DNA from: a virus
Taxonomy: Duplodnaviria; Heunggongvirae; Uroviricota; Caudoviricetes
Length of the DNA: 49,349 bases
Virus record (IMG/VR): IMGVR_UViG_2529292718_000007
Strand: one strand, 5' to 3'
Part shown: piece by piece, positions 11,189 through 36,046 of the stretch
Layout: each line of letters opens with the position of its first letter
Position numbering within the stretch: position 1 is the stretch's first letter
Notes under the pieces: generated by a model
Told to the model about the DNA's origin: nothing
Databases searched by the model: none
Seen by the model: only the letters and a program-made list of their open reading frames with translations
Made by a program: the position numbers and the translations under genes

Positions 11189-11190
11189 TT

Positions 11191-11811: not shown

Positions 11812-12275
11812 TTGTGGGTATGCTTGGTACAATGCCTTTTGTTGCCTCATCAATAGTGGTGAATACGTTCAACAATTTTAAAAGGACGTCAAAGCGTCGT
11901 GTAGCGCGCCATGATGTTATTGGGCTTAAACCTGTTCTGGAGGATATAGGTCCAGATCTGGATGAAGTTAGTTTTAATATGCGGTTGGATACAACACTTG
12001 GCATTGTTCCATTGGCTGCGCTTTCATTACTTAGGACAATGCAATCAATTCAGGAAGTAAATCCTGTTGTAATTGGTATTCAGTATTTTGGTAATTTTAT
12101 AATTACAGATATAGAGGAATCATGGACTTATTTCGGTCCAACTGGGAATCCACGAGTGATTATCGTCGGCATTAAATTACAGGAAGTCGGACAGACCTCT
12201 CTGAAAGAAGCATTAGTTGATATTGCTGGCAATATAGAGTCAAAAACTAGAAGTGCGTTAGGTAAATTATTATGA
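11808..12275 (+). CDS. Putative baseplate protein
   Basis: 155 aa ORF with overlapping start/stop between gpV-like and gpW-like genes. Confidence 0.4.
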   Translation: MIVGMLGTMPFVASSIVVNTFNNFKRTSKRRVARHDVIGLKPVLEDIGPDLDEVSFNMRLDTTLGIVPLAALSLLRTMQSIQEVNPVVIGIQYFGNFIITDIEESWTYFGPTGNPRVIIVGIKLQEVGQTSLKEALVDIAGNIESKTRSALGKLL

Positions 12276-12592
12276 ATAATACGTTTACCATATCATCACC
12301 TTCTTACTCGATTGATTGGTCGCCCAAAACAGTTGTAGAAGAAGTTTTGCAAAATGTCTCTACTATTATTAATACTCAAATTGGCACTGTACCATATGCC
12401 AGAAAATTAGGAATTAATTCAAGTCTTGTTGATAGCCCTAGTCCAATTTTTATTGCTACAGCAACACGAGAAATAATTCAAAAAATTAGTGAGTTTGAGC
12501 CTAGAGCGATTATCCATTCTGTTACTTTTGAAAGAACGGACGTTTCTGATGGTTTTATTAGGCCAAAACTTGTGATAGGAGTTAGAGAATGA
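12272..12592 (+). CDS. Baseplate wedge protein (GPW/gp25 family)
   Basis: 106 aa; gp25-like pattern (PYARKLGINSSLVDSP...EFEPRAII). Confidence 0.7.
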   Translation: MNNTFTISSPSYSIDWSPKTVVEEVLQNVSTIINTQIGTVPYARKLGINSSLVDSPSPIFIATATREIIQKISEFEPRAIIHSVTFERTDVSDGFIRPKLVIGVRE

Positions 12593-13713: not shown

Positions 13714-14287
13714 TATCTTTAATGTTAGCTTGTTGGATGTTTTACCTCCTAACTTAGCTAGCGATCCCAACGTGATAGCTATGTCGAAAGCTATTGATGA
13801 TGAACTACAAGCAATTAACAATTTAATATATAAGACAGAAATATATAGCGTTGTTGATAACCTGGACTCAGTTGTTCTCGATCATTTAGCTTGGCAATGG
13901 AATGCTGATACATGGAGGGATAGTTGGCCTGTATTGTTAAAGCGTTCTGTTTTTAAATCAATAATACGAACAAAGCGAATAAAGGGTACAAGGGCAGCGG
14001 TTGAAGATGTAGTAAATAGCTTGGGTGGAGAGGTAAACATAACAGAATGGTTTGAAACATCACCACCTGGCGAACCATATACAGCCTCAATTGTTGCTTC
14101 GATTAACTCTTTTGATGGTGCTGTTCCTTCGAAAGAGATGTTGGAGGATACGTTAAGAAGTATCAAGAGTGCAAAGTCGGCAAGAACACTATTTACATTT
14201 TCGCAAGCAACCAATGTTTCAGGTGGTGTTGGTATTGTCGGTGCTTTCCAGCCTGTGTCTTATGTACGATTAATTGGTGAGTGCTAA
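13706..14287 (+). CDS. Tail protein I-like
   Basis: 193 aa; resembles P2 gpI (HLAWQWNADTWRDSWP..., VNITEWFETSPPGEP). Confidence 0.65.
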   Translation: MADIFNVSLLDVLPPNLASDPNVIAMSKAIDDELQAINNLIYKTEIYSVVDNLDSVVLDHLAWQWNADTWRDSWPVLLKRSVFKSIIRTKRIKGTRAAVEDVVNSLGGEVNITEWFETSPPGEPYTASIVASINSFDGAVPSKEMLEDTLRSIKSAKSARTLFTFSQATNVSGGVGIVGAFQPVSYVRLIGEC

Positions 14288-14317
14288 TTTGCGATTTGTT
14301 AATCCAAGGAATTAAGC

Positions 14318-17164
14318 GTGAGTAAATTATTATTTACGATGACTGACGCCGGGCGTAAGGCGCTGGTTAATGCCAACAAGACTGGAACAAATAAAGTTGA
14401 GATCGTTTCTGTTGGTTTAGGTAGTAGATATTATGCCACATCAACCACACAAACAAAAATAACAGATGAAATAAAGCGACTTACCACAATAGGAGGCAAA
14501 GTCGTTTCTCCTGATACCATTCATGTAACTGCGAAGGATGATAGTAAAGATGAGTATGTTGTCCATACAATAGGTTTGTATACAAATAAAGGAACATTGT
14601 TTGCTGTATACTCGCAAGAACAAGTAATAATAAATAAAGCATCTTCTACAATTGCTTTAATATCAAGTGATATAGCAATTAAAAATCTTGATACTAAAAA
14701 CATTACATTTGGTGATGTTGAGTTTATTAACCCTCCCGCAACCGAAACTGTTGTTGGAGTAGCAAGATTTGCTAATGAACAAGAAATTGATGCAGGTACA
14801 GATGATTCCCTGGCTGTTTCAGCAAAGCGGCTTAAGCAAGCTATTGTAAAACATGAGCAATCACGTAATCATCCTGATGCAACTTTAACATCAAAAGGCA
14901 TTGTTCAACTCAGTAATGCCACCAATAGCACGTCTGAAAAGCTCGCAGCGACGCCTAAGGCTGTTAAGGCTGCATATGACCTGGCTGACGGAAAATATAC
15001 CGCCCAGAATGCCACCACGGCACAAAAAGGGATAGTTCAGCTCAGTAGTGCCACTAACAGTACGTCTGAAACGCAGGCGGCAACGCCAAAAGCGGTCAAG
15101 GCAGCAAATGACAACGCAAATTCACGTCTGGCGAAAAATCAGAACGGTGCAGATATCCAGGATAAATCAGCTTTTCTGGACAATGTTGGCGTTACCAGCC
15201 TGACGTTTATGAAAAACAATGGCGAAATGCCGCTTGATGCTGATCTGAATACGTTTGGTCCTGTTAAGGCTTATTCAGGTATCTGGTCTAAAGCAACATC
15301 CACCAACGCAACACTGGAGAAAAATTTCCCGGAAGATAATGCTGTCGGTGTGCTTGAGGTTTTTGCTGCCGGCCATTTTGCAGGTACGCAACGCTTTACC
15401 ACGAGAGACGGCAATGTATACATGCGTAAACTCGCCAATAAGTGGAATGGCACTGATGGTCCGTGGGGCGTATGGCGTCACACTCAATCTGCTACCCGCC
15501 CTTTGAGTACGACTATAGACCTGAATACGCTTGGAGCCGCCGAGCATCTTGGTTTATGGCGTAACAGTAGCTCAGCTATAGCTTCATATGAACGCAATTA
15601 TCCAGAGGAAGGCGGCTTTGCTCAGGGGATGCTTGAGATCCTCGAAGGCGGAAATTATGGAAGAACGCAACGTTATACCACTCGCCGTGGAAATATGTAT
15701 GTCCGCTGTCTTGCGGCAAGCTGGGATGCATCAAATCCGCAGTGGGAACCGTGGTTAAGAGTCGGTCATCAGTCAGAGAGTCGTTATTACGAAGGTGATT
15801 TGAATGATGTAACCTCACCAGGTATTTACAGCGTTACAGGTAAAGCGACCAACGGTCCAGTACTGGACGGAAACGGCGTGACTGTACTCGGCATTCTGGA
15901 AGTGTTGAGGCGGTTTGATGGTGTTAATGTATGGCAGCGTTATACAACTGCCGGAACAGGTACAACCCTTAAAGGCCGCACCTTTGAGCGCGTCTTTACC
16001 GGCAGCTCATGGAGCGAATGGCGGGAAGTCTACACCTCGTATTCACTTCCCCTGAATCTGGGTATCGGCGGTGCTGTGGCAAAGCTCACCAGCCTGGACT
16101 GGCAGACCTACGATTTTGTGCCGGGCAGTCTGATAACCGTTCGGCTTGATAACATGACCAATATTCCCGACGGTATGGACTGGGGCGTCATTGATGGCAA
16201 CCTGATAAACATCTCAGTCGGTCCGAGTGATGATTCTGGTTCGGGACGCTCAATGCATGTATGGCGCAGCACTGTAAGTAAAGCCAACTACCGCTTTTTT
16301 ATGGTTCGCATTTCAGGAAATCCGGGAAGCCGCACGATCACGACAAGACGTGTGCCAATTATCGACGAAGCTCAGACATGGATGGCGAAACAGACATTCA
16401 GCGGTGGTCTTTCAGGCGAACTATCCGGCAATGCTGCTACAGCAACAAAGCTGAAAACGGCAAGGACAATTAACGGCGTAAAATTTGACGGCTCGGCAAA
16501 TATTGAAGCGTTTCCGCCAGGTGTTCCGCTGCCGTGGCCATCAGATACGCCACCTGCAGGTTATGCAATCATGCAGGGGCAGACGTTTGATAAGGCAGCA
16601 TATCCGAAACTGGCTATTGCCTATCCTTCTGGTGTTATTCCAGATATGCGCGGCTGGACAATCAAGGGCAACCCCGCCAGTGGTCGGGCCGTATTGTCTC
16701 AGGAACAGGATGGCATTAAATCGCACACCCACAGTGCCAGCGCATCCAGTACGGATTTGGGTACGAAAACCACATCGTCGTTTGATTACGGTACTAAATC
16801 AACGAATAACACAGGTGCACATACCCACAATGTATCTGGTACTGCAAATAGTGCTGGCGCACATACTCATACCGTTCCATTAAGGAGACCAAACAGTGGC
16901 GGTATGAATTTCGACTGGCTGGATGGTTCATCAAGTGGCACGGTGGTGGGGAATGGAACTGTGCCTTCTTCTGGCGCACATACCCACTCAGTATCAGGTA
17001 CCGCTACAAGTGCTGGGGCACATGCACACACTGTTGGTATTGGCGCTCATACGCACTCTGTTAAGATTGGTTCACATGGACACACCATCACCGTTAACGC
17101 TGCTGGTAACGCGGAAAACACCGTTAAAAACATCGCATTTAATTATATTGTGAGGCTTGCATAA
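14318..17164 (+). CDS. Tail fibre protein
   Basis: 948 aa; tandem fibre repeats (GIVQLSxATNSTSE..[10 protein letters not shown] twice), duplicated central domain, His-rich C-terminal repeats (GAHTHxVSGTA...). Confidence 0.85.
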
Positions 17165-17781
17165 TGGCATTCAGAATGAGTGAACAATCACGTACCGTAA
17201 AAATTTATAACCTGCTGGCCGGAACTAATGAGTTTATTGGTGAAGGTGACGCATATATTCCACCTCATACAGGGCTGCCAGCTAATTCTACAGATATCGC
17301 CCCACCGGAAATTCCTGCTGGCTTTGTGGCAGTTTTTAACAGTGAAAATGAATCGTGGAATATTGTTGAAGACCATCGTGGTAAAACGGTCTATGACGTG
17401 GCGTCGGGGGACGCATTGTTTATTTCTGAACTCGGACCGCTACCAGAGAATGTCACCTGGTTGTCGCCAGCAGGGGAGTATCAGAAGTGGGACGGCGTAT
17501 CCTGGGTGAATGATGAGGAAGCAGAAAAACTGTTTCGGATACGGGAAGCGGAAGAGAAAAAGGCAAGGTTGATCCAGGAAGCAACAGATAACATCGCAAT
17601 TCTGCAGGATGCAGTTAATCTTGAAATAGCAACAAACGAGGAAAATTCACAACTGGATTCCTGGAGAAAATACAGAGTATTAGTGAGTAGAATTGACACC
17701 AGTACAGCTCCGGATATCGTATGGCCAGAGCTGATGAATCAGGGTTATGTTCGGGAGGACGAGCAGATAACTTCAGACTGA
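17164..17781 (+). CDS. Tail fibre assembly protein
   Basis: 205 aa; immediately follows fibre gene; Tfa-like N-terminus and acidic coiled C-terminus. Confidence 0.7.
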
Positions 17782-18308
17782 AATTTAGTGATGAATGTTG
17801 AATCATCAGGAATATCATGCAATACCAATGCATGAGCACCTATTGTGACATTGTTTCCTATACGCACTTTGCCACCAAGAATGGTGGCATTACAACCAAT
17901 GGTCACATTATGCCCTATAACAATATCCATATCATTAAATTCCCCGCGAAGTCCAATAGTTACTCCGGGCTTAATTGAACAATTTTCACCGATTGTTACT
18001 TTGTGACCGATAACAACACTGTTGAGATAAGAAATATCAAAGCCTTTCCCTATATTTACAGTTAAAGGGACTGTTACATTATATTTATCAAGAATGAAAC
18101 GTTCTATTTTTCCCGCAATCTTCCGACAGTATCCGCCTTTATCAAAAAGGTATTTGGCTATGCGCCACCAAAATAAATAACGAACCCTTCTATGTTTTAT
18201 TGCGCGAACAATTGCCTTTCGCCAGGAGAAAGGACGCTCGCTACCGATTACTTCATAGTGAATACAGTCTTTAAGTTCATTAATATTCATATCTTTATTA
18301 TTCAGCAT
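17745..18308 (-). CDS. Hexapeptide-repeat acetyltransferase (WcaB/CysE-like)
   Basis: 187 aa; tandem hexapeptide repeats ([21 protein letters not shown]...[14 protein letters not shown]); AT-rich; convergent with and overlapping 3' end of fibre-assembly gene. Confidence 0.75.
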
Positions 18309-18782
18309 AAGATAATCATGTGACCAATTATTGTAATAATTTTAATGGTATGTTTCTACTGGCTATCCAGCGTGTCTGATATCCAGTAACAAATCGTCAA
18401 CACGGGTGCAATCAAATGGTGAGTGTTAAGACTGACCACTTATTACCAGGTATGAGTGGCCAGCATTAAATCAGAACAGCCCTTTAACTGAACTGGCCGC
18501 GCTGTTAAGGGATGATGTCACCTTATCTTTGAAGCCGGACAGCATATTGCTGAACGATGAGTTTACCGCAGGTTTCTGGCTGGGAATCATTGACTGGAGT
18601 TAGGCCAGTAGTATGATGCTCGCAAAACGAGATCCAATTTAGATCCTTTTACTGGTGGATTATCGTTCGATCAGTGAGAGACTTCGTGCATGACCGAAAG
18701 TGTTGTGGTAGAGTTCTCTTAAAACCACGTAACGTGGTTATGATTGTGGGTGTCTGGTTGGAAAGTGACCAGATATGGAAAC

Positions 18783-18895
18783 AAAAAGCCCGCAGATAAA
18801 TCTGCGGGCTTCTTGCGACATCCACGGAAAACCAACAACTAACCATGGGCGCCTCGACAACTCCCATTATACGTTGGTTTTCCGTGGACGCAAGA
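18783..18895 (-). ncRNA. Candidate CopA-like antisense RNA opposite the repA leader
   Basis: Minus-strand hairpin GCCCGCAGA-ttta-TCTGCGGGC followed by TTTTT (about 18782-18810) and a 15 bp stem (CCACGGAAAACCAAC / GTTGGTTTTCCGTGG, 18812-18889) in the repA leader; promoter not located. Confidence 0.4.
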
Positions 18896-18903
18896 GCGAA
18901 CAT

Positions 18904-19752
18904 ATGGATAGACCAATGCCGTCTCTACGTTCAGCTTACGTTTGTAATTTGTCGCCGGAGTTCCAGCCTCCAAAGCACCATACGCACAAGCTGCCGCTGG
19001 TGTTATCTGATGCTTTACAGCGCATTAATGGGCGTGATCTTACGTGTGAGGTTGCGTTCTACGTTAATCAACCGTCAGAGCGGAAGCGCCGGATAAACGA
19101 GCATCGTCGTCGGGCGATTAATGCTGTGATCGCTGCGATTTTGCACCATGTAAACATCATTTCTAAGCGGGTTCTGGCCAGTGCTGAGGCGTTGGCTGAT
19201 TTTTGCGGCCTGTCTACCGTATCCGAAGCTGGGAACAAGTCTATAACGCGCTGTACAAGGGCGTTGTCGCAACTGAAAGCGTTAGGTTTTATTGATTATG
19301 AACGTCGCTGGGATCGGGTGAATAAACAGTATTGGCCAGCGAAAATAGAGATTCGTGATCAACTGCTGGAAACCGTTGGTATTACTGAACAAGCATGGAG
19401 ACGTGCGGTTAGCCAGAAACTTAATTACTTCAATGCGAAGAATAGCGAACGGCTTAAAAAAGCGATAACGGAGGCTGATTATAAGCGTATTGTTATTCAG
19501 GAGCAGATGGAGAATGTATGGCATCAGAGGAAGACGGCCAGAGAGATAAAGGCAAAACAGAAAGCAGCGGAGAGAGCTGCGCGTCTTGTTCGGGAAAAGG
19601 GAGAGGCCGAACTTCGTCATCAAATCACTAGAGAGGTTAGCCAGGAATTTGCTGATGGCATGTATCCTGGAGCTGACCTTGCATATTTACGATCCCTCGT
19701 TGAGCAGCGTTATAACAGGTTAAGAAAGACCTGGAAATCACTCCAACATTAA
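18904..19752 (+). CDS. repA: Plasmid replication initiator RepA (IncFII RepA1 family)
   Basis: Clear RepA1-like motifs (RRRAINAVIAAILHH, CGLSTVSEAGNKSITRCTRALSQLKALGFIDYE); track ORF begins at ATG 18775 but the leader hairpins lie inside that extension; alternative starts 18775/18916. Confidence 0.8.
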   Translation: MDRPMPSLRSAYVCNLSPEFQPPKHHTHKLPLVLSDALQRINGRDLTCEVAFYVNQPSERKRRINEHRRRAINAVIAAILHHVNIISKRVLASAEALADFCGLSTVSEAGNKSITRCTRALSQLKALGFIDYERRWDRVNKQYWPAKIEIRDQLLETVGITEQAWRRAVSQKLNYFNAKNSERLKKAITEADYKRIVIQEQMENVWHQRKTAREIKAKQKAAERAARLVREKGEAELRHQITREVSQEFADGMYPGADLAYLRSLVEQRYNRLRKTWKSLQH

Positions 19753-19759
19753 CCCACCT

Positions 19760-20250
19760 GAATGATGAATCCGGTTTTACCGGAGGATTATCTACGTCGC
19801 AATAAAATATCTGTTCAAAAAACAATCTAAATTAATTTTCTCTAAACCGGAACACAGCAAAAATATCGCCTTTACAGGCATCGGCTAATAAAGTTATCCA
19901 CAGTTTTGATATGTATATGCAAATGGTTTTTTATAATAGATGCACTAAACAAATAAATGCAAAATCACTTTCTTTTATTAAGACTTTCTTTATTTAACTT
20001 ACGCAGGCTTTGCCTGTGAATATGTTCGCCCTTGCAGCGAGCTAAAGCTCGCGCCGGTTCGAGTCGCTACGCTCAAATATACCTCCTCCGGCACTTGCCG
20101 GAGGCATGGAGCAGCCTGATCATCCTTTTCGAAACGGCGCGTTTCGAACTATACAAAATCAATTTATATAAGGCCGAAATAAGGCCTACGGCCGGGCTTT
20201 GCAGGAGGAAGGGGCGAGCCTTATCAATAAACGTCGAGAAATACGCACAC
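19760..20250. other. Putative replication origin region (oriR-like) downstream of repA
   Basis: Consensus DnaA box TTATCCACA at 19893..19901 in AT-rich DNA, followed by GC-rich segment with several hairpins/palindromes (CCTCCGGCacttGCCGGAGG, TTCGAAACGgcgcGTTTCGAA). Confidence 0.45.
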
Positions 20251-20383
20251 AGTAGCCATCAGAACGCGATAAAACGTAAGAAACATCATTTCCTATTAGA
20301 CATAGAAAACTTGTCTTATACGCAATGTAGTAAATTTCTATTGCCACATAGGAAAAGATTTCCTACCATCGTAGATATAATAA

Positions 20384-20683
20384 ATGGAGATGGTTATGGA
20401 TAAAGATACTGTTTTAAAAATGTTGAATCCGGCTTGTTTAAAAAAAGCGGATGAATGGGAATCTCCTACATGTGGAGAAGTTCGGGCAGTCATTGGCCTC
20501 ACCGGAATGAGTGGCTCGCAGTTGGCCAAAAAACTAGGCTTAAAAGATAGTCGCAATGTTCGCAACTGGCAGATGTTAAAGGAGTCCACATCCAGATCCA
20601 GCATTCCGTATGCAGCCTGGGCGCTGCTGTGTTACTTCGCTGGGTTAGGGTTAATCTTCATTGATAACAAAACAGATGTTTGA
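20384..20683 (+). CDS. HTH-domain protein with C-terminal hydrophobic segment
   Basis: 99 aa; HTH-like GLTGMSGSQLAKKLGL; hydrophobic tail; stop overlaps next ORF. Confidence 0.45.
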   Translation: MEMVMDKDTVLKMLNPACLKKADEWESPTCGEVRAVIGLTGMSGSQLAKKLGLKDSRNVRNWQMLKESTSRSSIPYAAWALLCYFAGLGLIFIDNKTDV

Positions 20684-20706
20684 AACATGCAAATATGAGG
20701 TTTGTT

Positions 20707-20970
20707 ATGGAACTTGTACGCAAAACACGCAAAGAGTTCTTGGACCTGTATCGCATGGGAGCTTTCACTTGTGTTGTGGCTACCCAGGACGAAGTGACAA
20801 AAAGCTGGCGGCTTTTTGCTCTCAATAAAAAAGGGATTGCCGTTTTCATTGAAAAAGCCCGTGGTGGTATCCGCGAATGGGCGGGATTGAATTATGTGGC
20901 TGATTTTTGCGCAGCTATGGGGATTCGTCGCTGGGAAGTCCATATGCCAGGAGTAAAGTCACAAAAATAG
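20707..20970 (+). CDS. Hypothetical protein (partner of upstream HTH gene)
   Basis: ORF 20680..20970; ATG 20707 has GAGG 8 nt upstream. Confidence 0.4.
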   Translation: MELVRKTRKEFLDLYRMGAFTCVVATQDEVTKSWRLFALNKKGIAVFIEKARGGIREWAGLNYVADFCAAMGIRRWEVHMPGVKSQK

Positions 20971-21208
20971 GGCTTTCGCGTCGAAAATGAGGCGAAACTG
21001 AAAACGAGATTTCATTAACAAATAAGCAACATAAAAAACGGTGGAAAACGCCCAGGAAAACATGATCTTTTGAGCGGATTTTTTAGATCCGACAATGAAC
21101 GGTGATCCGGTGGTGCCGATAACGTCCATTATGTTAAATAGCCCCGTTTTTCTTGAAATTATAACCCACAGGTTATATAGTTAGTGATATAAACTACAGG
21201 TTATAGGA

Positions 21209-21562
21209 TTGAGCATGTGGACGGTACTTTTTAGCCAGCGATTTGACGACTGGCTAAATGAGCAAGAAGACGCTCTTCAGGAAAAGGTTTTGGCTGATTT
21301 GAAAAAGCTACAGGTTTACGGACCTGAGTTACCCAGGCCATATGCCGATACCGTAAAAGGTTCTCGGTACAAAAATATGAAAGAGCTTCGCGTTCAGTTT
21401 TCTGGCCGTCCGATAAGAGCCTTTTATGCGTTCGATCCGATTCGCCGGGCCATCGTTCTTTGTGCAGGAGACAAAAGTAACGATAAACGGTTTTATGAAA
21501 AACTGGTGCGTATAGCTGAGGATGAGTTTGCAGCACATCTGAACACACTGGAGAGCAAGTAA
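21209..21562 (+). CDS. higB: Type II toxin, RelE/ParE superfamily (HigB/Gp49-like)
   Basis: 117 aa; Gp49/HigB-like pattern (ELRVQFSGRPIRAFYAF, RRAIVLCAGDKSNDKRFYEKLVRIAEDEF); toxin-first order. Confidence 0.75.
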   Translation: MSMWTVLFSQRFDDWLNEQEDALQEKVLADLKKLQVYGPELPRPYADTVKGSRYKNMKELRVQFSGRPIRAFYAFDPIRRAIVLCAGDKSNDKRFYEKLVRIAEDEFAAHLNTLESK

Positions 21563-21861
21563 TGAGAACATTAGATGAGGTGATTGCCAGCCGTTCACCT
21601 GAAAGCCAGGCGCGAATTAAAGAAATGGCAGATGAGATGATTCTTGAGGTCGGCTTGCAGATGATGCGTGAAGAACTCCAGTTATCACAAAAACAGGTTG
21701 CTGAGGCGATGGGTATAAGCCAGCCAGCAGTAACAAAGCTGGAGCAGCGCGGAAATGATTTAAAGCTGGCGACATTAAAGCGTTACGTTGAAGCTATGGG
21801 AGGCAAATTAAGCCTGGATGTTGAGCTTCCCACAGGAAAACGAATAGCGTTTAACATCTGA
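21562..21861 (+). CDS. higA: Antitoxin, XRE-family HTH (HigA-like)
   Basis: 99 aa; HTH LSQKQVAEAMGISQPAVTKLEQ; ATGA overlap with toxin stop. Confidence 0.75.
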   Translation: MRTLDEVIASRSPESQARIKEMADEMILEVGLQMMREELQLSQKQVAEAMGISQPAVTKLEQRGNDLKLATLKRYVEAMGGKLSLDVELPTGKRIAFNI

Positions 21862-21875
21862 TCAGAACGAATGAT

Positions 21876-21904
21876 AAGCCCCTGTTGCAAAGGGGCTTTT
21901 TTGT
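21876..21904 (+). terminator. Rho-independent terminator after higBA
   Basis: AGCCCCTgttgcaaAGGGGCT hairpin followed by TTTTTT. Confidence 0.6.
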
Positions 21905-21910
21905 GCTCAT

Positions 21911-22024
21911 AGAATTATATAATTATATATTTATATAAAAAGCGCTTTACAGGTGGGAAAAAATTTCCTATGGTTATACCCGAAACCGAGCGATACCCGC
22001 CCTGGTTAAACCGGAGATAACCCG
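21911..22024 (+). promoter_or_regulatory. Conserved promoter-leader module, copy 1 of 3
   Basis: Near-identical to 30607..30719 and 38793..38906; AT-rich palindromes, then TTTACA (21946-21951), 17 bp spacer containing GGAAAAAATTTCC, TATGGT (21969-21974), then leader with GGAGA SD before ATG 22025. Confidence 0.6.
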
Positions 22025-22405
22025 ATGAGCATGATTAAAATCCGCAAAAACGCTTTCCTTAAAATTCAAACTATCCTGGCTGGTTCTGTTGGCGTGATTT
22101 GCCGTTCTTCTTCAAGCCGCATCGATGACGGCTACGATGATGAGTACCGTGTGTCCTCGTGCGATGAGGCTTTAACCTGGCTGAAGGAGAATCAGGAACG
22201 TGCCCAGGTATATCTGGAAACAGAGAACGGCAATCAGATGCTGCGTATTAGCGGTCGTTATGGATTTGAAACTACATTCATGGCCTATTTTAATCAGGCT
22301 TACTTTGACAAGGAGCTGGCCTGGTACACTGATCGCATGAGCAAAAGCGAGCCAGCCCCGATTACACCGCCGAACAATAAACCATTTTTATTCCTCGTTA
22401 AGTAA
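22025..22405 (+). CDS. Hypothetical protein (first gene of module 1)
   Basis: 126 aa ORF with SD; no family recognised. Confidence 0.5.
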   Translation: MSMIKIRKNAFLKIQTILAGSVGVICRSSSSRIDDGYDDEYRVSSCDEALTWLKENQERAQVYLETENGNQMLRISGRYGFETTFMAYFNQAYFDKELAWYTDRMSKSEPAPITPPNNKPFLFLVK

Positions 22406-22468
22406 ACACAATGCGCAAAGTGTCATTTTGACACTTTGCGAGTGTTAATATTGTGCGAGGAGGATGCT

Positions 22469-22741
22469 ATGACGGGTTATGAATTGAAATTATGGCGTCG
22501 TGGGATGAACTGGACGCAGGAGCGAGCCGCCGAATAATTTGGGATATCGTTGGCTACATATAAGCGATATGAGAAGGGGGAGCCGCCGAGGGTCATTGAG
22601 ATGGCCATTCGCGTTCTGTCGTTTGACGATATGGTTAAGGATCTTTCACACCTTGATAAAGATGCGATTCTGTTAAGGCTGCAAACCCTTGTATGGGAAA
22701 AGGTTAAAGTGTCGTCAGAATTGGAACAAGGGATCAAATGA
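22469..22741 (+). pseudogene. XRE-family HTH gene interrupted by in-frame TAA
   Basis: ATG 22469 with strong SD GAGGAGGA; MTGYELKLWRRGMNWTQERAAE then TAA at 22535-22537, same frame continues ...FGISLATYKRYEKGEPPRVIEM... to 22741. Confidence 0.55.
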
Positions 22742-22792
22742 TCCTTTACGGATCGTTTTATGGTGGTGTAATGTAAGCGCCAGAAAGACAAA

Positions 22793-22814
22793 AACCGCCT
22801 TGCCGGGCGGTTTT
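22793..22814 (+). terminator. Rho-independent terminator
   Basis: AACCGCCttgccgGGCGGTT followed by TT. Confidence 0.5.
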
Positions 22815-23347
22815 CAGTCTGAAATTTAAATCTTGCTTGGTAGGCTGGATTTAAAAAGACACCTCTTGATTGGGGCGGCTTTCTTGCGTCTAAAGATAAT
22901 CAAATCTTTTTGCGCCTGCAACCCCTTTTTTACTGGTGCCTGTTTCAGACTCACGCTCGCGTCGTTGTCTTTGCCACTTCGTTGGGTTCGGTGTTTTTGG
23001 GCGGAGTGGCGCGCGGGTATGCGTACAAGGGGAAAGTGTGCTGACGCAAGCCAGGAACAGCGATCTAAACTAAGTCGAGTCTGAGAAAGGCAGGAGTGCG
23101 ACAACTCGCCTGTGCTCAATGAGCAGAAGAAGGTATATCAGACGACCAATGGCATGATTGTGGGCCACAGGGCGCACACGGCGGCGAAGCATTGGAAACG
23201 ATGTGGAGCTATCTGGTGGCATGAGTTCCGGTACTCGATCTCGAGCTTTTTTTGATGCTTTTGAGAAGGGGCCGGAACTCCGGTAAAGGGCACCCTGTAT
23301 GGGGGGAGGGGGGGTTGTGTCTTAAAGGGGCCGTAGCCCCTTTGTTG

Positions 23348-24490
23348 TTATGGTCTGCTTTTCTGTGCGAGCTTATCAGCACATGTTTTTATCAGCTCCT
23401 GTAGTGTCCTGGCTGGCAGGTTTGCATCCAGTACGCTGAGTATGCTGTTGTGATCTGCCTGGTCGACTACTTTGCCTGTCGGTGGTAATAGCTTGAGCTG
23501 AGGATTCAGGTTTTCGTCAAAGCTGATAAGTGCTCTGGCGTTTCTGAGCAGATCAAGAAGTAAGGCTGATATCACATTTTCCTGAGTCATTGCTGGCAGA
23601 TTTAGCGCCGCTTTGGTTTTCCCTGTTGCCTTGTCAAACTCCTTGATTAGTTCCTTCCTGTAGTTCGGTTCCGTTAATAGCCGATTATGCTCTGTTGCCG
23701 CGCGGATAATCGTTTTTTCCTGGTACAGTCGTTTAGCCAGATCGCGCTCGTACTGTGTTTTTAACACGCTGCTGATAGCGCTAAAGGCTTCAATGTAGGC
23801 CAGCTTGATATCCTTCACGCCTGGACCGTCGATACTTTCCATGAGCAAGGTAAATCCGTCTTTTGTCATGCGATAGATTGTTATTTCGCGGTCGCTTCCT
23901 TCCAACGGTCGTTGCTCTTTAAAGAAATGACGCGCCGCAGCTGTGCGAGGAATGCGTAACGCATCGATGGCCATAACGATGGAATTGTTTGTGGTGCTGA
24001 ATGCTTGGGCAACATCGGCTGAGGTTGTGAGTGGCTCGTTATTGCACACCTTAATGTAAAACATCGGTTTGGCGTTGAGCGTATCGACAACCTCACGAGC
24101 ATTGTTTGGCGAGACGGTTACGGTCGCGGCCGTTTGCGCGTTCTGGTTGAAGTAGCAGTCTTCCAGCCGTTCGAATACATCCCACGCCTGATCGGTTTCG
24201 AGCATTTTAGCGTGACGTGCAGCCCCGCGTTCGGTCCAGAGGATTAGTTTTCTAACGTTATTCGCGATGGTTTGAAAATCTCTTAAAGAGATTTTCAAAC
24301 TTTGGAGATCTGTACCTTTTACAATTATGAAATGTTTTCCTTCTGTAAACCGGGACTTATTACGGTGGTGATTTCTGTGAAGACATTCGACGCTACAGCC
24401 ATATAGTTTGGCAAGCAGCTCCGTGGTGATAACGGGGATCTGGTTATGCAGGATAGGCTGTAGGGTGTTAACGGTCGGAAGAGTTTTCAT
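23348..24490 (-). CDS. ant: Phage antirepressor / Rha-family regulatory protein
   Basis: 380 aa; two Rha/antirepressor-like segments (IPVITTELLAKLYGCSVECLHRN; PLTTSADVAQAFSTTNNSIVMAIDAL). Confidence 0.55.
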   Translation of the reverse strand: MKTLPTVNTLQPILHNQIPVITTELLAKLYGCSVECLHRNHHRNKSRFTEGKHFIIVKGTDLQSLKISLRDFQTIANNVRKLILWTERGAARHAKMLETDQAWDVFERLEDCYFNQNAQTAATVTVSPNNAREVVDTLNAKPMFYIKVCNNEPLTTSADVAQAFSTTNNSIVMAIDALRIPRTAAARHFFKEQRPLEGSDREITIYRMTKDGFTLLMESIDGPGVKDIKLAYIEAFSAISSVLKTQYERDLAKRLYQEKTIIRAATEHNRLLTEPNYRKELIKEFDKATGKTKAALNLPAMTQENVISALLLDLLRNARALISFDENLNPQLKLLPPTGKVVDQADHNSILSVLDANLPARTLQELIKTCADKLAQKSRP

Positions 24491-24678
24491 TTTGCACCTC
24501 CCATAACTACTTTGGTTACGAGGGAGATTTTTGCGTCAGAAACAGCGTTATCGTTGCTGGCGATGCGCATAGCTTCGCGCTCGATTATTTCAGCCAGGCG
24601 GAGTTTATCGGCGTATGAGGCTTTCTTGAGAAGGATCTTTACGAGGTTGACGTAATAGTCATGGGGTAGGTTTGTCAT
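24487..24678 (-). CDS. Small protein co-transcribed with antirepressor
   Basis: Track ORF 24487..24714; internal ATG at 24678 has GGAGA SD; stop overlaps ant start (ATGA). Confidence 0.45.
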   Translation of the reverse strand: MTNLPHDYYVNLVKILLKKASYADKLRLAEIIEREAMRIASNDNAVSDAKISLVTKVVMGGAK

Positions 24679-25431
24679 TGTGATATCTCCAGTATATGGA
24701 ACTATCACCGCCATTCGAGGCTAATCAAATGGTGGTGAGCCGTACAGGGTTAGCCTTACCGGACACAATGACGAACCGGCGCGGATTTCTCCGCCCCTGT
24801 ACGACCCACCATAATTTGGGCGTAACAGTGCTCTACGCATAAAAAAACCGCTAACGCGGTATGCGCCATCGTGTTATTCAGGAGGCTAATCCCGGCCGTA
24901 GATTTTGCTACGGCTCGGAAAGTGTCCACCAATGGCGCATTTATGTCAATACGGCGGGGTTTTAACAGAGACAACCACATAGCGTGGGTTTATTGGTAGG
25001 CAGAAACAAAAAAACCGCCCTATTGAGGACGGTTCTTTCGTGCTGATCGGATTCGCGGTCCTTTCAGCATTACGTTGTTGTATAAACAACCACGCAAGCA
25101 CAAGCAGCAAGTTAATTTTACCCAAAAGGTAATAATAGTCCACTATTATGCTTCAAAAAATTGTGGTTCTTGTTGTGCCTGCAAACTCACAGATTGTGGG
25201 TAGGTTACTGATTTTGTGAAAATAAACGAGTTTTTTCGTTTAATTTCTTTCCTATTACTAATCTTAAAATAATCGTAAAATACCTGTGGACCTTCCCGCC
25301 GATTCGCACCCGGGCACCGACTTTAGGGGAGGATTCTCCGTTGCCGTACATGCAAGCACAAGCAGCCGTGCTTGCTCTCGCGTTGTTTTCGTCGGTGGGG
25401 ATGCCGTGAAACGGCCTGTAAGGGCCATACA

Positions 25432-25554
25432 ATGAAAAAATACTGTATGTGTATTTTTATCGTTGTTACTGGGGCTTTGTTTACGCCACATGGGGAGGGT
25501 TGGAAGATTACTGATAACGCTCTGAATGTGACGATAAACATTAGCAGCAAGTAG
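25432..25554 (+). CDS. Small hydrophobic peptide (40 aa)
   Basis: MKKYCMCIFIVVTGALFTPHGEGWKITDNALNVTINISSK; followed by strong terminator. Confidence 0.3.
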   Translation: MKKYCMCIFIVVTGALFTPHGEGWKITDNALNVTINISSK

Positions 25555-25559
25555 CGATT

Positions 25560-25583
25560 AGGCCCCTTCGGGGGCCTTTTTTT
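25560..25583 (+). terminator. Rho-independent terminator
   Basis: AGGCCCCttcgGGGGCCT followed by TTTTTTT. Confidence 0.7.
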
Positions 25584-25805
25584 ATGGCTGAATTTAAACG
25601 CTGGAGCGCATTAAGCCTTTCAGAACTGCTTCACGTACCCATTCTGGCCTGGTGGATAGCAGGGCAAATAAGCAGCCAGCTTGCAGCCGTTTGAGGTCGG
25701 TTAGACGAGTTTTCAGTAACCGTGTATATTGTTGCTCGGACATAACAAATTCCCCTTGTTGTGTCGCGACGGCCAACAGTTGGCGCTGGAGGCCGTCACC
25801 TTCTC

Positions 25806-26054
25806 TTACTTCTGGTTGTATTGAGCCTTGAGTAACTCAAAAGACTTTGTCAGCACTTCTTTCAATGACATATCCATTGAGCTGGCGAACGTTTTGTACT
25901 CGCGTTTAAATTCAGGGTCGACGTTAAACGCCATTTGTGCCCCACCTGATTTGGTTCTGGTTGGCGTTTCAGTCGGGTCGAAAACCTGCGGTTGTTCGAT
26001 CGATGGCGGTACGCCTTTGCTGTTCTTCTTTGGTGGTTTTGATGGTGCGGCCAT
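25806..26054 (-). CDS. ParG-like ribbon-helix-helix centromere-binding protein
   Basis: 82 aa; disordered basic N-terminus then RHH-like FNVDPEFKREYKTFASSMDMSLKEVLTKSFELLK; downstream of parA. Confidence 0.7.
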   Translation of the reverse strand: MAAPSKPPKKNSKGVPPSIEQPQVFDPTETPTRTKSGGAQMAFNVDPEFKREYKTFASSMDMSLKEVLTKSFELLKAQYNQK

Positions 26055-26097
26055 GTGTATCCCCTCTTATATAAATCTATAAAACTATAATTATATA

Positions 26098-26751
26098 TTA
26101 TGCGGCAGTAGTCAGAGCCTCAAGCTGGTTGATAATCCCCTGAATAACGTCGTCTGCCTTTTTGCGTGGCGCAACGTATGAGCACTCAATGAGGCTTAAG
26201 CCCTTATCCTGAGCTTTGCTCAGAGCTGGCTTGTGGGGAATGTACTTATCGACAACAAAGTATGGCGTATTAGCCAGGTACTCTTGGGCTTCAATATAGT
26301 CAGCTTCGTTTTCAGCCGCGCCGGAAAACACCATGCAAATTTTCTTGATTGGTACACCCTTTTTAACGATGCCGTGAGCAGTGTTAACGGTGGTTTCCAG
26401 GTCATCGGTAGAGAATCGGGTTGGCAAAATAACCATATCCAGAAATTCAGATAGCTTCGGTACTGATTCAGATGCGTAGGCACCGCCATCGACGATAACC
26501 AGGTCGTATACTTCTGATTCGATGATTTTCTGGACTTGTGATGGTGTGCCGCACGGCTGCGCCGCGATTGCTGGTTCGATATTGTTGGCCATTCTGCGTT
26601 GTACCCAACGCGTTACCGTTCCGTTAAGCACATCCATATCGATCAGGCATACATTCCAGCCAGCCTTTGCATAAGCAACTGCTAAAGCACGGGCAATTGT
26701 TGATTTGGTTACGCCGCCTTTTCCGTTGAAAATACCTACAGAGATAGTCAT
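26098..26751 (-). CDS. parA: Partition ATPase ParA (small type Ib)
   Basis: Deviant Walker A GIFNGKGGVTKST; track start 26766, ATG 26751 has GGAG SD. Confidence 0.8.
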   Translation of the reverse strand: MTISVGIFNGKGGVTKSTIARALAVAYAKAGWNVCLIDMDVLNGTVTRWVQRRMANNIEPAIAAQPCGTPSQVQKIIESEVYDLVIVDGGAYASESVPKLSEFLDMVILPTRFSTDDLETTVNTAHGIVKKGVPIKKICMVFSGAAENEADYIEAQEYLANTPYFVVDKYIPHKPALSKAQDKGLSLIECSYVAPRKKADDVIQGIINQLEALTTAA

Positions 26752-26775
26752 TTGTCGAGACTCCATGTGTTTGGT

Positions 26776-26879
26776 TATATAATTCTATAAATCTATATTT
26801 ATAGAACGAGGTAAGCATAACCAACTTTTTGGCTGATGAAAAGCGTTTTATATAATTATATAAATCTATAATCATATAA
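26776..26879. promoter_or_regulatory. par operon promoter/operator (possible centromere) with two AT-rich palindrome clusters
   Basis: TATATAATTCTATAAATCTATATTTATAG (about 26776-26805) and TATATAATTATATAAATCTATAATCATATAA (about 26847-26879) upstream of parA; a third cluster at 26067-26100 between parA and parG-like gene. Confidence 0.5.
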
Positions 26880-26901
26880 GCGGGCGTTAGCCCGCTTGCA
26901 G

Positions 26902-27276
26902 TCAGAGGTCAGCTATCGTTGATATCAGTTGATTTGCTAGCTGTCGCTGTTTACGTGAGAGGGTTAGAGCAGCTTCTGAGCGGTCGCTAAGAGGGGGGGT
27001 TTCATCAAGAATCATGAGGCATACAGAAATAATAGCCCTGTTATATGCCATCAATGGCTGGCACAGCTTCGATACCGCTGGCACATCGTATTGTAAGGCC
27101 GTTTTGAGGCAGACTTTTTGTTCTGATGCCAGATGAAGGATAGATTCTATCCAGTCGATATCTTTCTCATTATCAATGATTTGGCATAACATACACTCAA
27201 TCGCTATGTTCAACGCTTGGATTTCGATTCCAGCAGTGATCAGAGTTTCGTTTTTATTGGCTGTATGTAATTCCAT
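26902..27276 (-). CDS. Hypothetical protein downstream of cI-like gene
   Basis: 124 aa ORF; position analogous to accessory genes co-transcribed with repressors. Confidence 0.45.
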   Translation of the reverse strand: MELHTANKNETLITAGIEIQALNIAIECMLCQIIDNEKDIDWIESILHLASEQKVCLKTALQYDVPAVSKLCQPLMAYNRAIISVCLMILDETPPLSDRSEAALTLSRKQRQLANQLISTIADL

Positions 27277-27368
27277 GCGTAGCCTCTTTTATACTTTTAC
27301 ATGTTGTCAAAACCACAAAATGTGGTTTTTTTGAGCGTAGAAATGCACGGCTTTCGCCGTGCTGTGTA

Positions 27369-28025
27369 TCATAACCAGTTGACAACACTAACTACGCGGC
27401 CAAGAACTTTATAACGCTTAAATTCCTCGTTATTCAGATGCTTAGTGTTCATTTCAGCATCCCTTTCGGTTGACAGCATAACAGCATTGTCACCCGGTAT
27501 GACTCTACAGTGCCTCAAAACAACCAGGCCATTTCTGTCTTCAAGGGCATAGATCCCCTCATGAATCTCTGTATCGTCTGTATTAATCAGGACTTGGGAG
27601 CCTGGGGATATTGTTGGTGACATTAACTCATCGTTGCTCTGGAGAACTGACAGAGACGATGGGTTGATGTTCTTGCTTCGTAGAATCTCCTGTTCTATCG
27701 CCAGCACTGGCTTTTCTCCGGCGTGCGATGCTATGTCATTTTTTATAGCTACAAGCCCAGGAATAACAGGAGCGTTAGTATTCTGGGGTGGGAACGGGTT
27801 ATCTGTTAAGCACGCGATATAAGGCGCTGATGCTTTCAGGGCGTGCGCGATTTTCTTGATGGCAGGTATAGATGGTTGTCTTAATCCGGCCTCATAGTTC
27901 TGCAAGGTGCTTAAGCCTATTCCAGTGACTTGCTGGAGATCTCCGGCAGTCATGCCGGATTGTTTCCGTAGAGTCTGAATGCGCAGACCTATTTCTTTCT
28001 TGATGTTCTCGTCGTTGCTTTTCAT
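27369..28025 (-). CDS. cI: CI-like repressor (N-terminal XRE HTH, C-terminal S24 LexA-like domain)
   Basis: 218 aa; HTH GLRIQTLRKQSGMTAGDLQQVTGIGLSTLQNYEAG; C-terminal S24-like fold (MSPTISPGSQVLIN...); divergent from Cro-like gene. Confidence 0.75.
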   Translation of the reverse strand: MKSNDENIKKEIGLRIQTLRKQSGMTAGDLQQVTGIGLSTLQNYEAGLRQPSIPAIKKIAHALKASAPYIACLTDNPFPPQNTNAPVIPGLVAIKNDIASHAGEKPVLAIEQEILRSKNINPSSLSVLQSNDELMSPTISPGSQVLINTDDTEIHEGIYALEDRNGLVVLRHCRVIPGDNAVMLSTERDAEMNTKHLNNEEFKRYKVLGRVVSVVNWL

Positions 28026-30550: not shown

Positions 30551-30606
30551 AAGTGTCATTTTGAGCTGTTTTGATGGTGTGTAGACATCGGGAACATCGA
30601 AAATCT

Positions 30607-30719
30607 ATAAATATATAATTATAGATTTATATAAAAAGTGCTTTACAGGTGGGAAAAAATTTCCTATGGTTATACCCGAAACCGAGCGATACCCGCCCTG
30701 GTTAAACCGGAGAAATCTG
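30607..30719 (+). promoter_or_regulatory. Conserved promoter-leader module, copy 2 of 3
   Basis: TTTACA at 30642-30647; about 95 bp nearly identical to copies 1 and 3 (one substitution before the last 10 nt of the leader); ends at ATG 30720. Confidence 0.6.
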
Positions 30720-31787
30720 ATGAATAAACAAGTAATTATTTCTGACTGGATCAACAACCCTAACAGCCTGTTAAGCACTGATACTGGCTACCTATTACGC
30801 CATGTTAATGGTCGTATGGTCAAAAGCGATGAGCACGAAACCTTTTTCTTTGTTGAAGACGATGGGCGTATCTATGAGGATGGTTACTCTTATGAAGCCC
30901 AAACTGGTTGTATCCCTGCGGAGCTGGTGGACGTAACAGAAGATCTGCGCAAAGCATGGCTTGAACAGCAGCAGCGCGGAGATGATTACGTAAACACCTA
31001 TCAGGAACGCCAGAACGCGCGTCTTGCCCGATATATTGCTCGTGCAGAAAAAGCCAGAAAAGAAGGTGCGGTAGCGCATAAGCGAGCGCATGACCTGTTG
31101 GATGTGATCCCGTTAGGCCAGCCGATTTTAGTTGACCATTATAGCGCGAAAGGCCATCGCCGCCGTTTGTCTAAAGCTGATGCGTTATTCAGAAAAGCGT
31201 TTGTTGAATGCGAAAGTAAAGCATCACACTACGAGAGCAAAGCCGCAGGTGTTGGTCGTAATGGAATTTCGTCTGATGATCCTGATGCGCTATTTAAGTT
31301 GCTTCGTAAGCTGCAAGGCTGCATGAAGTCACACGTCAAAATGAAGGCCGCAAATAAGGCCATTCGCAAATACAAAAAAGACCAAATACAGCAGCTTTCT
31401 GCATTAATCGATCTCAGGTTTACAGAAAGCGAAGCCAAAGAGTTACTGGCCGGAGATTTCTGTGGGCACATCGGATTCCCTTCATACGCACTGAGCAACA
31501 ATAACGCCGAAATCAAACGACTACAGAGCCGTATTAAGGAGCTTGAATCGGTCAAGTCTGTAACAGGAGCACAGCGCGAAGAATACGACGGCTTTTCTAT
31601 GGAGATAGATCCAGAGGATAACCGCATCCTGTTTTATTTCCCTGGCAAACCAGAGGCAAACATTCGTTCGCTGCTTAAATCACGCGCCTTTAAGTGGAGT
31701 CCAACCCGTAATGCATGGGTTCGCAAGATTACTCCAAACGCCCTGGCTGATGCCCGATATCTAAAAGAATCGCTATTGAAAGCCTGA
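30720..31787 (+). CDS. DUF3560-like protein
   Basis: 355 aa from ATG 30720 (track ORF 30666 begins inside the conserved leader); QPILVDHYSAKGHRRR and C-terminal FKWSPTRNAWVRK pattern. Confidence 0.5.
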   Translation: MNKQVIISDWINNPNSLLSTDTGYLLRHVNGRMVKSDEHETFFFVEDDGRIYEDGYSYEAQTGCIPAELVDVTEDLRKAWLEQQQRGDDYVNTYQERQNARLARYIARAEKARKEGAVAHKRAHDLLDVIPLGQPILVDHYSAKGHRRRLSKADALFRKAFVECESKASHYESKAAGVGRNGISSDDPDALFKLLRKLQGCMKSHVKMKAANKAIRKYKKDQIQQLSALIDLRFTESEAKELLAGDFCGHIGFPSYALSNNNAEIKRLQSRIKELESVKSVTGAQREEYDGFSMEIDPEDNRILFYFPGKPEANIRSLLKSRAFKWSPTRNAWVRKITPNALADARYLKESLLKA

Positions 31788-31864
31788 CAGTAAGCCTACG
31801 GCGGGACGTCTCCCGCCGTATATAGAATTATATATTTATACAAATGTATAAGGACGCCTCGACA

Positions 31865-36032: not shown

Positions 36033-36046
36033 TAACGAGGATTTCA

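Follow-up and report, generated by a model that had tools for sequence, protein, structure and literature searches.

A 48-kb temperate myovirus genome that very probably persists in Escherichia as a circular low-copy plasmid

The IMG/VR virus record IMGVR_UViG_2529292718_000007, a stretch of 49,349 nucleotides that was analysed over its whole length and is called the window here, very probably represents a complete temperate myovirus genome, maintained in Escherichia as a circular plasmid of low copy number, i.e. as a phage-plasmid. We favour this reading because the window encodes a full virion and lysis gene set, because it encodes no integrase, and because its relatives are always found as separate replicons of ~48 kb. 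An original prediction, made from the letters alone, had proposed an extrachromosomal prophage on the basis of positions 17745-28025 (hereafter the finding region), and this proposal is supported by the gene content, the lack of an integrase, the self-closing window and the separate replicons in E. coli genomes. Each feature named in the prediction was recovered at or close to its given position, and the features on which the argument draws are collected in Table 1.

Replicon state and the search for a recombinase

Positions 1-1002 of the window are identical to positions 48348-49349, meaning that the sequence closes on itself through an overlap of 1,002 nt into a circular replicon of 48,347 bp without host-like flanks; the '48.3 kb unit' proposed earlier was therefore correct. 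Chromosomal integration with host flanks, which the original prediction had named as evidence against itself, was looked for in a set of 5,426 complete E. coli genomes, where the region (counted as carried if at least 80% of it was present) occurs in 57 genomes (~1%) and is chromosomal in none. Likewise, all 60 best E. coli records are separate replicons of 39-57 kb, with one of 94 kb, and no chromosome is among them. PLSDB contains 44 plasmids with coverage of at least 80% of the finding region; those listed are 47-52 kb in size, apart from the same 94-kb record, which belongs to strain ATCC 25922. More than 40 circular plasmids of 47-50 kb, assembled independently, show this coverage with the order kept and at 96-99% identity. 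Only 63 PLSDB plasmids contain the segment spanning repA and the candidate origin. They measure 32-52 kb, in nearly all cases 44-52 kb, and all are non-mobilizable; three of these match at ~74% identity, and the two listed are Salmonella plasmids. By contrast with these replicon-based matches, the 52 Yersinia plasmids in PLSDB that match the finding region do not owe their match to the replicon segment.

One 99%-identical plasmid whose annotation was examined shares the gene order over 42 kb, and a circular plasmid of S. Weltevreden (47,244 bp, ~74% nucleotide identity) keeps it throughout. Near-identical records comprise plasmids, including that of E. coli ATCC 25922, as well as Yersinia phage isolates, and the element is also present in E. 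albertii, E. fergusonii and Salmonella. The three Yersinia phage genomes, which are 97-98% identical to the window, were deposited as isolates propagated on Y. pestis EV76. Searches of the literature for accessions and phage names (CP009073, OR545055, 613R2) returned nothing useful. An identical 26.6-kb piece has been published as a PHASTER-predicted prophage whose plasmid nature was not recognised there.

Two records depart from the usual size. NZ_CP032086.1 (E. coli ATCC 25922, 94,204 bp) has about twice the unit length and matches at four places. It represents a dimer or else an artefact of assembly, a point of relevance to the Xer site discussed below. The IMG/VR contig 3300029841_000009, a family member of 68.5 kb that an exact 32-mer scan of IMG/VR had missed, was checked as a possible integrated copy. 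Its extra DNA carries another phage's small terminase, a podovirus-type portal and a GP7 capsid (seen within 10700-20681 of the contig), is joined at Ea22-like genes, and shows no host genes in the 10 kb examined. As the extra DNA includes part of the head module of a second phage, the contig is a metagenome assembly chimera or a real hybrid rather than a host junction. The Ea22-like protein itself makes a poor query because its family is widespread.

The claim that no tyrosine or serine recombinase is recognisable in any frame was borne out by a Pfam hidden Markov model scan of the ~73 genes (E<=1e-3; E<=0.01 for the 20 genes of the finding region) and of 134 stop-to-stop open reading frames (ORFs) of at least 70 amino acids (aa) in other frames (E<=0.05): neither set contains a match to Phage_integrase, Resolvase, Recombinase (the large serine type), rve/DDE transposase or protelomerase. 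Yet the absence of a serine recombinase is a trait of the window copy and not of its family, since the Yersinia phages, the Salmonella plasmid and most E. coli family plasmids encode a Hin-type invertase just upstream of repA, beside an inverted fibre cassette. The window may retain the end of such a gene (Table 1), and DNA homology to the Yersinia phage resumes at position 18562, ~30 nt before the stop codon of its hin. An invertase in the relatives leaves the episomal reading intact because the enzyme switches fibres and does not integrate.

Where the relatives carry the invertible fibre segment and hin, the window harbours an acetyltransferase cassette; the Yersinia phages and most plasmid relatives have other DNA in its place. 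The surrounding host-range region (15037-18561) is a mosaic: the distal fibre is 92-94% identical to fibres of P2-type phages, and a 96-nt fibre fragment (18466-18561) matches P88-type phages.

Table 1. Main features of the window and the basis of their assignment (positions as in the 49,349-nt sequence)
Feature	Position	Strand	Basis
Virion module	44245 across circle junction to 17781	+	Pfam; PGAP names of a 99%-identical plasmid
Packaging/head start: ParB-N domain protein, putative small terminase, GpA large terminase, gpW-like DUF6148, lambda-family portal	44245-49070	+	Pfam
GpA large terminase	45392-47248	+	Pfam, ATPase domain E=2e-75, nuclease domain E=1e-84
Lambda-family portal	47496-49070	+	Pfam, E=7e-101
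ClpP-type head protease	692-1780	+	Pfam
Phage_cap_E major capsid	2194-3237	+	Pfam, E=2e-54
Tail sheath	4747-6210	+	No Pfam match; named from annotation of a 100%-identical phage record
Tail tube FII (P2)	6227-6748	+	Pfam
Tape measure	7194-9986	+	
P2-type baseplate gpD/V/U/W/J/I	10187-14287	+	
Tail fibre	14318-17164	+	
Fibre assembly protein (Caudo_TAP)	17164-17781	+	Pfam
Hexapeptide-repeat acyltransferase (serine-acetyltransferase-like) cargo cassette	17745-18308	-	Pfam Hexapep, E=1e-12
Possible remnant of a Hin-type DNA invertase gene (its final 10 codons) at the cassette breakpoint	18561-18590	+	tblastn with a relative's Hin, 8/10 residues, E=0.54, not significant alone
Candidate repA promoter, TTGACT-16-TATGAT	18590-18617	+	Consensus scan, 10/12; hexamers nearly invariant in Salmonella relative
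Candidate copy-control antisense RNA	18779-18892	-	Long bulged stem-loop, then rho-independent terminator; complementary to the leader of the repA mRNA, shortly before the likely RepA start
repA, initiator of the IncFII_repA family (distant lineage)	18904-19752 (longest ORF from 18775)	+	PF02387, E=1e-43
Candidate vegetative plasmid origin	19894-20000	+	DnaA box TTATCCACA (19894-19902), then conserved AT-rich block and three ATGCA(A/C) motifs
dif/cer-like XerC/XerD site, GGTGCCGATAA-CGTCCA-TTATGTTAAAT	21112-21139	+	Just upstream of higB; dif-consensus search
HigBA-type type II toxin-antitoxin	Toxin 21209-21562; helix-turn-helix antitoxin 21562-21861	+	Toxin first, 1-base overlap
P1-ImmI-like antirepressor operon	23348-24914	-	Rfam and Pfam
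ORF6N+Rha antirepressor	23348-24490	-	Pfam ORF6N E=9e-18, Phage_pRha E=2e-11
Small ORF (63-75 aa) in icd position	24487-24714	-	Matches only a PHROG of unknown function
C4 antisense RNA	24728-24816	-	Rfam RF01695, 70.8 bits (cut-off 45)
isrK-like RNA	24841-24914	-	Rfam, 68 bits (cut-off 50)
ryfA-like RNA	25286-25582	+	Rfam RF00126, 141.8 bits (cut-off 80), E=2e-36
82-aa ParA partner, candidate ribbon-helix-helix centromere-binding protein with disordered N-terminal tail	25806-26054	-	AlphaFold2 topology
Third par array, between parA and the 82-aa gene	26067-26098		
parA, small Walker-type partition ATPase, 217-222 aa, no N-terminal DNA-binding domain	26098-26766	-	Pfam CbiA (E=2e-12), MipZ, ParA
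Arrays of four 8-bp TTATAnAA units (32 nt) bracketing the parA promoter TTTTCA-17-TATGCT	26848-26879, 26775-26806	-	Position weight matrix scan
CI-like repressor (HTH_3 and degenerate S24-like C-terminal domain)	27369-28025	-	Divergent from early operon starting at 28200
Lysis cassette	35990-37653	+	Two holins, GH108+PG_binding_3 endolysin, two overlapping spanin-like ORFs

Replication, partition and stability functions

The replication initiator exceeds the cut-off of the Pfam family IncFII_repA by a wide margin (150 bits against 22.9) and passes the broad NCBIfam model RepA_IncFII_LM (NF040977; 231 bits against 70), but falls far below the equivalog models of IncFII (TIGR03474, 77 bits against 447; PRK13750, 81 against 478). 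The 'IncFII RepA' of the original prediction thus holds for the Pfam family, the protein being only a distant relative of the IncFII initiators. In tblastn searches, its own family accounts for 62 plasmids at 80% identity or more, followed by a gap down to the RepA of Buchnera (34% identity over 71% of the length), and classical IncFII RepA proteins align at 35-41% identity over 29-38% of the length. Translation probably starts at 18904 rather than at 18775, because the ATG at 18775 is absent from the Salmonella relative, whose repA is annotated at 277 aa, and because profile matches begin only at residue 52 (Pfam) or 53 (a PHROG profile of 284 positions). Upstream of the gene, a TTGACT-16-TATGAT element would be suited to serve as the repA promoter, and the interval 18309-18774 contains no plus-strand ORF of at least 60 aa that could correspond to CopB.

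Opposite the repA leader lies a structured element that fits a copy-control RNA of the CopA kind, to which the candidate would be analogous and not homologous. Its predicted fold has a minimum free energy of -69.5 kcal/mol (z=-9.2), and 0 of 200 shuffled sequences were as stable. RNAalifold of four diverged sequences yields 42 pairs, three of which are kept through changes on both sides. The T-run that follows the terminator hairpin exists on the minus strand only, and both the terminator and the apical region are identical between E. coli and Salmonella, in which the surrounding DNA is 76% identical. What stood of the predicted antisense-type leader is therefore a structured and conserved candidate antisense RNA element, albeit one without CopA homology.

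The predicted DnaA-box origin region was likewise recovered. The window has no perfect DnaA box other than TTATCCACA, which is located 142 nt past the repA stop codon and precedes the conserved AT-rich block; a looser DnaA pattern is not enriched (5 found against 6.4 expected). Relative to the 74%-identical Salmonella plasmid, in which the box reads TTATTCACA, this block is conserved far above its flanks, making it a candidate for the plasmid origin. A conserved cluster of GC-rich hairpins is found at ~20040-20170, 150-270 nt beyond the DnaA box, and IncFII plasmids carry primase-dependent single-strand initiation signals at the corresponding position. Two small ORFs occupy the space between repA and the gene of the HigB-like toxin.

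A search with the dif consensus returned a single site in the window, which has two mismatches to the dif arms (0 of 100 shuffles gave any match). Both of its arms recur unchanged at the syntenic location of the Salmonella plasmid and of the Yersinia phage. This site, of which the original prediction makes no mention, is a candidate for multimer resolution. As the host XerCD recombinase could resolve dimers there, the element would need no recombinase of its own.

For partition, the original prediction had proposed a type Ib system made up of ParA and a ribbon-helix-helix (RHH) protein similar to ParG. The ATPase fits this proposal: its Pfam match covers residues 12-191, its size is that of the type Ib class, it matches the ParA-like PHROG 164 (E=2e-39) and has a deviant Walker A motif (KGGVTKS), and its best solved partition relative is ParF of TP228 (4dzz, E=3e-4), even though it scores 78 bits against the cut-off of 180 of the NCBIfam model ParA_partition. 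Its partner is less clear. AlphaFold2 predicts the 82-aa protein (predicted local distance difference test, pLDDT, 65) to be disordered over residues 1-40, followed by a short extended segment and helices at 47-59 and 62-79. An hhalign comparison with ParG places residues 40-72 on 36-68 without reaching significance (E=0.05), and homologues are confined to the window's own phage-plasmid family. By its predicted layout, which is that of ParG, the protein is a candidate RHH adaptor whose role is unproven. The small ParA, its kinship to ParF, the gene layout and an RHH-like predicted topology therefore agree with type Ib partition, whereas the adaptor and the centromere are unproven; for the 82-aa protein, no significant sequence or fold match to ParG was obtained.

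The 8-bp units that flank the parA promoter are candidates for the centromere or operator, but they are not restricted to this locus. Apart from the three arrays that bracket par, five promoter-proximal ones lie far from it (21907-21938, 30603-30634, 31820-31851, 37653-37692 and 38789-38820), giving eight 32-nt arrays, each of which sits in an intergenic gap preceding a transcription unit. The 74%-identical Salmonella relative has every one of them at a syntenic position, and scans of 20 shuffled sequences with the same matrix returned none. In four cases, the array stops 7 nt short of a promoter of the type TTTACA/TTTTCA-17-TATGGT/TATGCT, and three of these four share a repeat of promoter and leader. 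The three copies of this 120-nt unit (21909-22028, 30605-30724 and 38791-38910; 89-98% identical) combine an array with the promoter TTTACA-17-TATGGT, a leader of ~55 nt and a Shine-Dalgarno sequence, each ahead of a different first gene.

Judging from this distribution, the arrays look like the regulon of a single regulator centred on the par locus. A tentative and rather doubtful extension is that the 82-aa protein binds all eight arrays, in which case the adaptor would act as a global regulator and the arrays as dispersed centromeres, similar to the omega protein of pSM19035. If true, plasmid segregation would be coupled to how at least six further transcription units of the lysogen phase are expressed, a circuit that to our knowledge is undescribed for any phage-plasmid.

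The HigBA-like addiction module that had been foreseen is indeed present: a gene for a Gp49/HigB-like toxin (PF05973, E=6e-23; 'RelE/ParE family toxin' according to PGAP) directly precedes one for an HTH_3 antitoxin (E=4e-10). A second addiction module may be encoded by the ryfA-like RNA, inside which a 40-codon hydrophobic ORF (MKKYCMCIFIVVTGALFT...) is located at 25432-25554, making the RNA a candidate type I toxin mRNA. The ryfA RNA has been linked to the small toxin TimP.

Virion, lysis and immunity genes

Pfam matches to terminase, portal, protease, capsid, tube, baseplate, fibre, holins and endolysin bear out the full set of virion and lysis genes. The contractile tail is of the P2 type, as indicated by matches to tube FII, GpU, GPD, V, J, I, fibre repeats and Caudo_TAP. 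The term 'lambda-like head' holds at the family level only. Outside the element's own family, the nearest phage capsids are those of Vibrio phages with 45-47% aa identity (X29, 46.6%). The lysis cassette is well supported for the holins (Phage_holin_8, E=2e-35; Phage_holin_3_7, E=4e-16) and the endolysin (Glyco_hydro_108, E=4e-25), and its two overlapping spanin-like ORFs are putative spanin genes.

Downstream of the lysis cassette lies a tRNA-Met gene (CAT; 37823-37898), which is preceded by one of the 8-bp-unit arrays and is annotated at the corresponding site of the Yersinia phage. Upstream of the terminase genes, the window encodes an MT-A70 methyltransferase and three ParB-N-domain proteins (38207-38794, 40956-42952 and 44245-44835), one of which is fused to a methyltransferase domain; the ParB-N-domain proteins are probably not part of plasmid partition. 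For the hypothetical proteins of the element, PHROGs already holds full-length families.

Lysogeny appears to be governed by two loci. The repressor matches HTH_3 (E=5e-11), the PHROG 4 transcriptional repressor (E=1e-26) and a CI-like repressor (E=3e-9), with Peptidase_S24 remaining under its cut-off (18.4 against 23.3 bits). Read by eye, its C-terminus contains D-E-L-M-S-P-T-I where the usual S24 peptidase motif is G-D-S-M-x-P-T-I, so that the catalytic serine may have been lost in favour of leucine. A 124-aa ORF lies between the parA and repressor genes. At the second locus, C4 and isrK-like RNAs are encoded directly upstream of the small ORF and the antirepressor gene within one transcription unit. 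A search of the window for LexA boxes found one site, located in a structural gene and at chance level, and none near the antirepressor operon.

Together, these parts suggest how the element might live. RepA would fire the DnaA-box/AT-rich origin just downstream of its own gene, and a constitutive antisense RNA would pair with the repA leader and throttle RepA synthesis. Segregation would rely on the type-Ib-like ParA and the small RHH-like adaptor bound to the 8-bp repeat arrays around the par promoter, dimers would be resolved by the host's XerCD at the dif/cer-like site, and cells that lose the element would be penalised by HigBA and probably also by the ryfA-type type I toxin. The CI-like repressor would hold the lysogenic state, with induction proceeding through the antirepressor operon gated by the C4-type antisense RNA, as in immunity region I of P1. 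At the lytic end, the lambda-type terminase would package genomes into lambda-type heads joined to P2-type tails.

Alternative explanations and kinship to known elements

Several observations weigh against this picture. The evidence for the window copy is sequence-based throughout, no publication was found behind the Yersinia phage records, and Pfam scans recognised no lytic replication genes in the early operon. For the control RNA, no CopA homologue was detected by Rfam in 18250-20450 even at E<=10, and no promoter of the antisense RNA reaches 9/12 of the consensus. Moreover, one stem position in one Salmonella lineage reads C-A on the antisense strand and U-G on the sense strand, and the hairpin could therefore serve the mRNA leader instead of an antisense transcript. 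The 82-aa protein, finally, has no match in Pfam, NCBIfam, PDB sequences (single and profile searches) or Foldseek against the PDB.

The most serious competitor, albeit an improbable one, is a cryptic phage-derived plasmid that makes no infectious particles and whose virion genes are inert cargo or encode a tailocin or gene-transfer particle. It would accommodate the subthreshold S24 domain with its apparent leucine and the lack of a LexA box near the antirepressor operon, and induction of the window copy would be a prediction from sequence. The study with an identical sequence predicted its prophage by PHASTER alone. However, the structural, packaging and lysis ORFs are all intact and syntenic in the E. 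coli, Salmonella and Yersinia-propagated copies, near-identical genomes were deposited as phage isolates grown on a Yersinia host, and the active exchange of fibre and host-range cassettes implies selection on adsorption.

The circle might also be the excised form of an integrative prophage, using either XerCD at dif in the manner of integrative mobile elements exploiting Xer (IMEX) such as CTXphi or an integrase too divergent to be recognised. The window does contain a well-conserved dif-like site, and the Pfam result leaves room for a novel recombinase family, the scan of non-coding frames having covered ORFs of at least 70 aa. We nevertheless consider this very unlikely: none of the 57 carrier E. 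coli genomes has a chromosomal copy, the oversized IMG/VR contig contains part of a second phage's head module rather than host genes over the 10 kb examined, and a dedicated initiator, an origin, a partition locus and two addiction modules would be needless for an integrating phage. Hardly credible at all is an assembly artefact, i.e. a wrongly closed linear or concatemeric contig or a plasmid-prophage chimera. While assemblers can produce exact end repeats like the one of 1,002 nt, and while one ATCC 25922 record is about twice the unit length and one IMG/VR contig chimeric, the matching order in more than 40 independent circular plasmids, one Salmonella plasmid and three phage genomes argues for a genuine circle.

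With a phage-plasmid as the preferred reading, P1 provides the closest precedent in lifestyle. P1 is likewise a temperate myovirus kept as a circular low-copy plasmid with replication, partition and toxin-antitoxin functions, has a C4 antisense RNA upstream of its antirepressor (matched here by Rfam) and carries a fibre-switching invertase locus (found here in the relatives). The two also differ: no DNA relatedness was detected except for a short Ea22-type module of ~1.5 kb, the element is half the size of P1, and it combines a lambda-type head with a P2-type tail. Where P1 uses an iteron-controlled RepA, type Ia ParAB, Cre/lox, Phd/Doc and C1, the window has an IncFII_repA-family initiator with an antisense RNA, a small type-Ib-like ParA, a host Xer site, HigBA and a lambda-CI-like repressor.

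The maintenance modules can similarly be placed beside known plasmid systems. With the IncFII (RepFIIA) plasmids R1 and R100, the replicon shares the Pfam family of RepA, an antisense RNA that is structured, includes a terminator and lies across from the repA leader, and a DnaA box with an AT-rich region shortly downstream of repA; it differs in the equivalog score of RepA, in lacking CopA homology and in having no CopB-sized ORF upstream. At the nucleotide level, it is confined to its own phage-plasmid family, and PLSDB assigns it no replicon type. The type Ib systems ParF/ParG of TP228 and ParA/ParB of pB171 par2 resemble the window locus in their ParA of ~220 aa that lacks an N-terminal DNA-binding domain, in the small gene downstream of it, which here encodes a protein with a predicted disordered tail and a strand-helix-helix end, and in short direct repeats around the promoter, those of the window being phased by 8 bp and comparable to the tetramer boxes of TP228 parH. 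Unlike these, the window has an 82-aa protein without a significant match to ParG or any RHH protein, a ParA under the ParA_partition cut-off and arrays at five further non-par sites. The putative Xer site resembles cer, psi and dif sites (e.g. ColE1 cer) in its 11-6-11 layout, its perfect XerD arm and its XerC arm with two mismatches, as well as in its location on a replicon without a resolvase of its own.

As for named phage-plasmids, a megablast against 50,697 phage records showed, among the matches listed, no long DNA shared with the curated types (P1, D6, N15, SSU5/pHCM2, pSLy3, pKpn and pMT1, among others); alignments of some length were restricted to the three phages of Yersinia and to two partial records from E. 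coli. Two candidate relatives were rejected: the pSLy3 group, which belongs to the SSU5 supergroup and is of the siphovirus type (predicted Siphoviridae), and Yersinia phage HQ103, published as 'pseudolysogenic', whose genome measures 32 kb as opposed to 48 kb. The family may fall inside the heterogeneous 'VP882' community, a proteobacterial group (Vibrio VP882, Burkholderia KS14, E. coli P88) with a mean size of ~41 kb and both phage and plasmid scores (Pfeifer et al. 2021, PMC7969092). In line with this possibility, the nearest capsids outside the family come from temperate Vibrio phages, but the window lacks a protelomerase and its only DNA match to P88 is the 96-nt fibre fragment. The comparison with known groups that the original prediction had called for thus reveals a familiar kind of element without long DNA similarity to the named types among the matches listed. 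To call the combination of head, tail and replicon 'unusual' was an overstatement, as the element is common and has already been deposited both as plasmids and as phage genomes.

The element is therefore of a well-established kind, and near-identical copies of its family are already known, which makes the finding useful rather than surprising. Phage-plasmids are increasingly recognised as vehicles that spread genes by infection as well as by vertical inheritance, whereas surveillance and typing tools cover few well-defined types. Here, ~1% of finished E. coli genomes, that of the quality-control strain ATCC 25922 among them, contain a myovirus family of ~48 kb that is not treated as a phage-plasmid type in the literature examined; one study listed an identical sequence as an ordinary predicted prophage. 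With its replicon, partition locus, Xer site, addiction modules and immunity region now mapped, there is a basis for typing this family and for asking in what way antisense control of a plasmid replicon and dimer resolution by the host are brought together in a phage.

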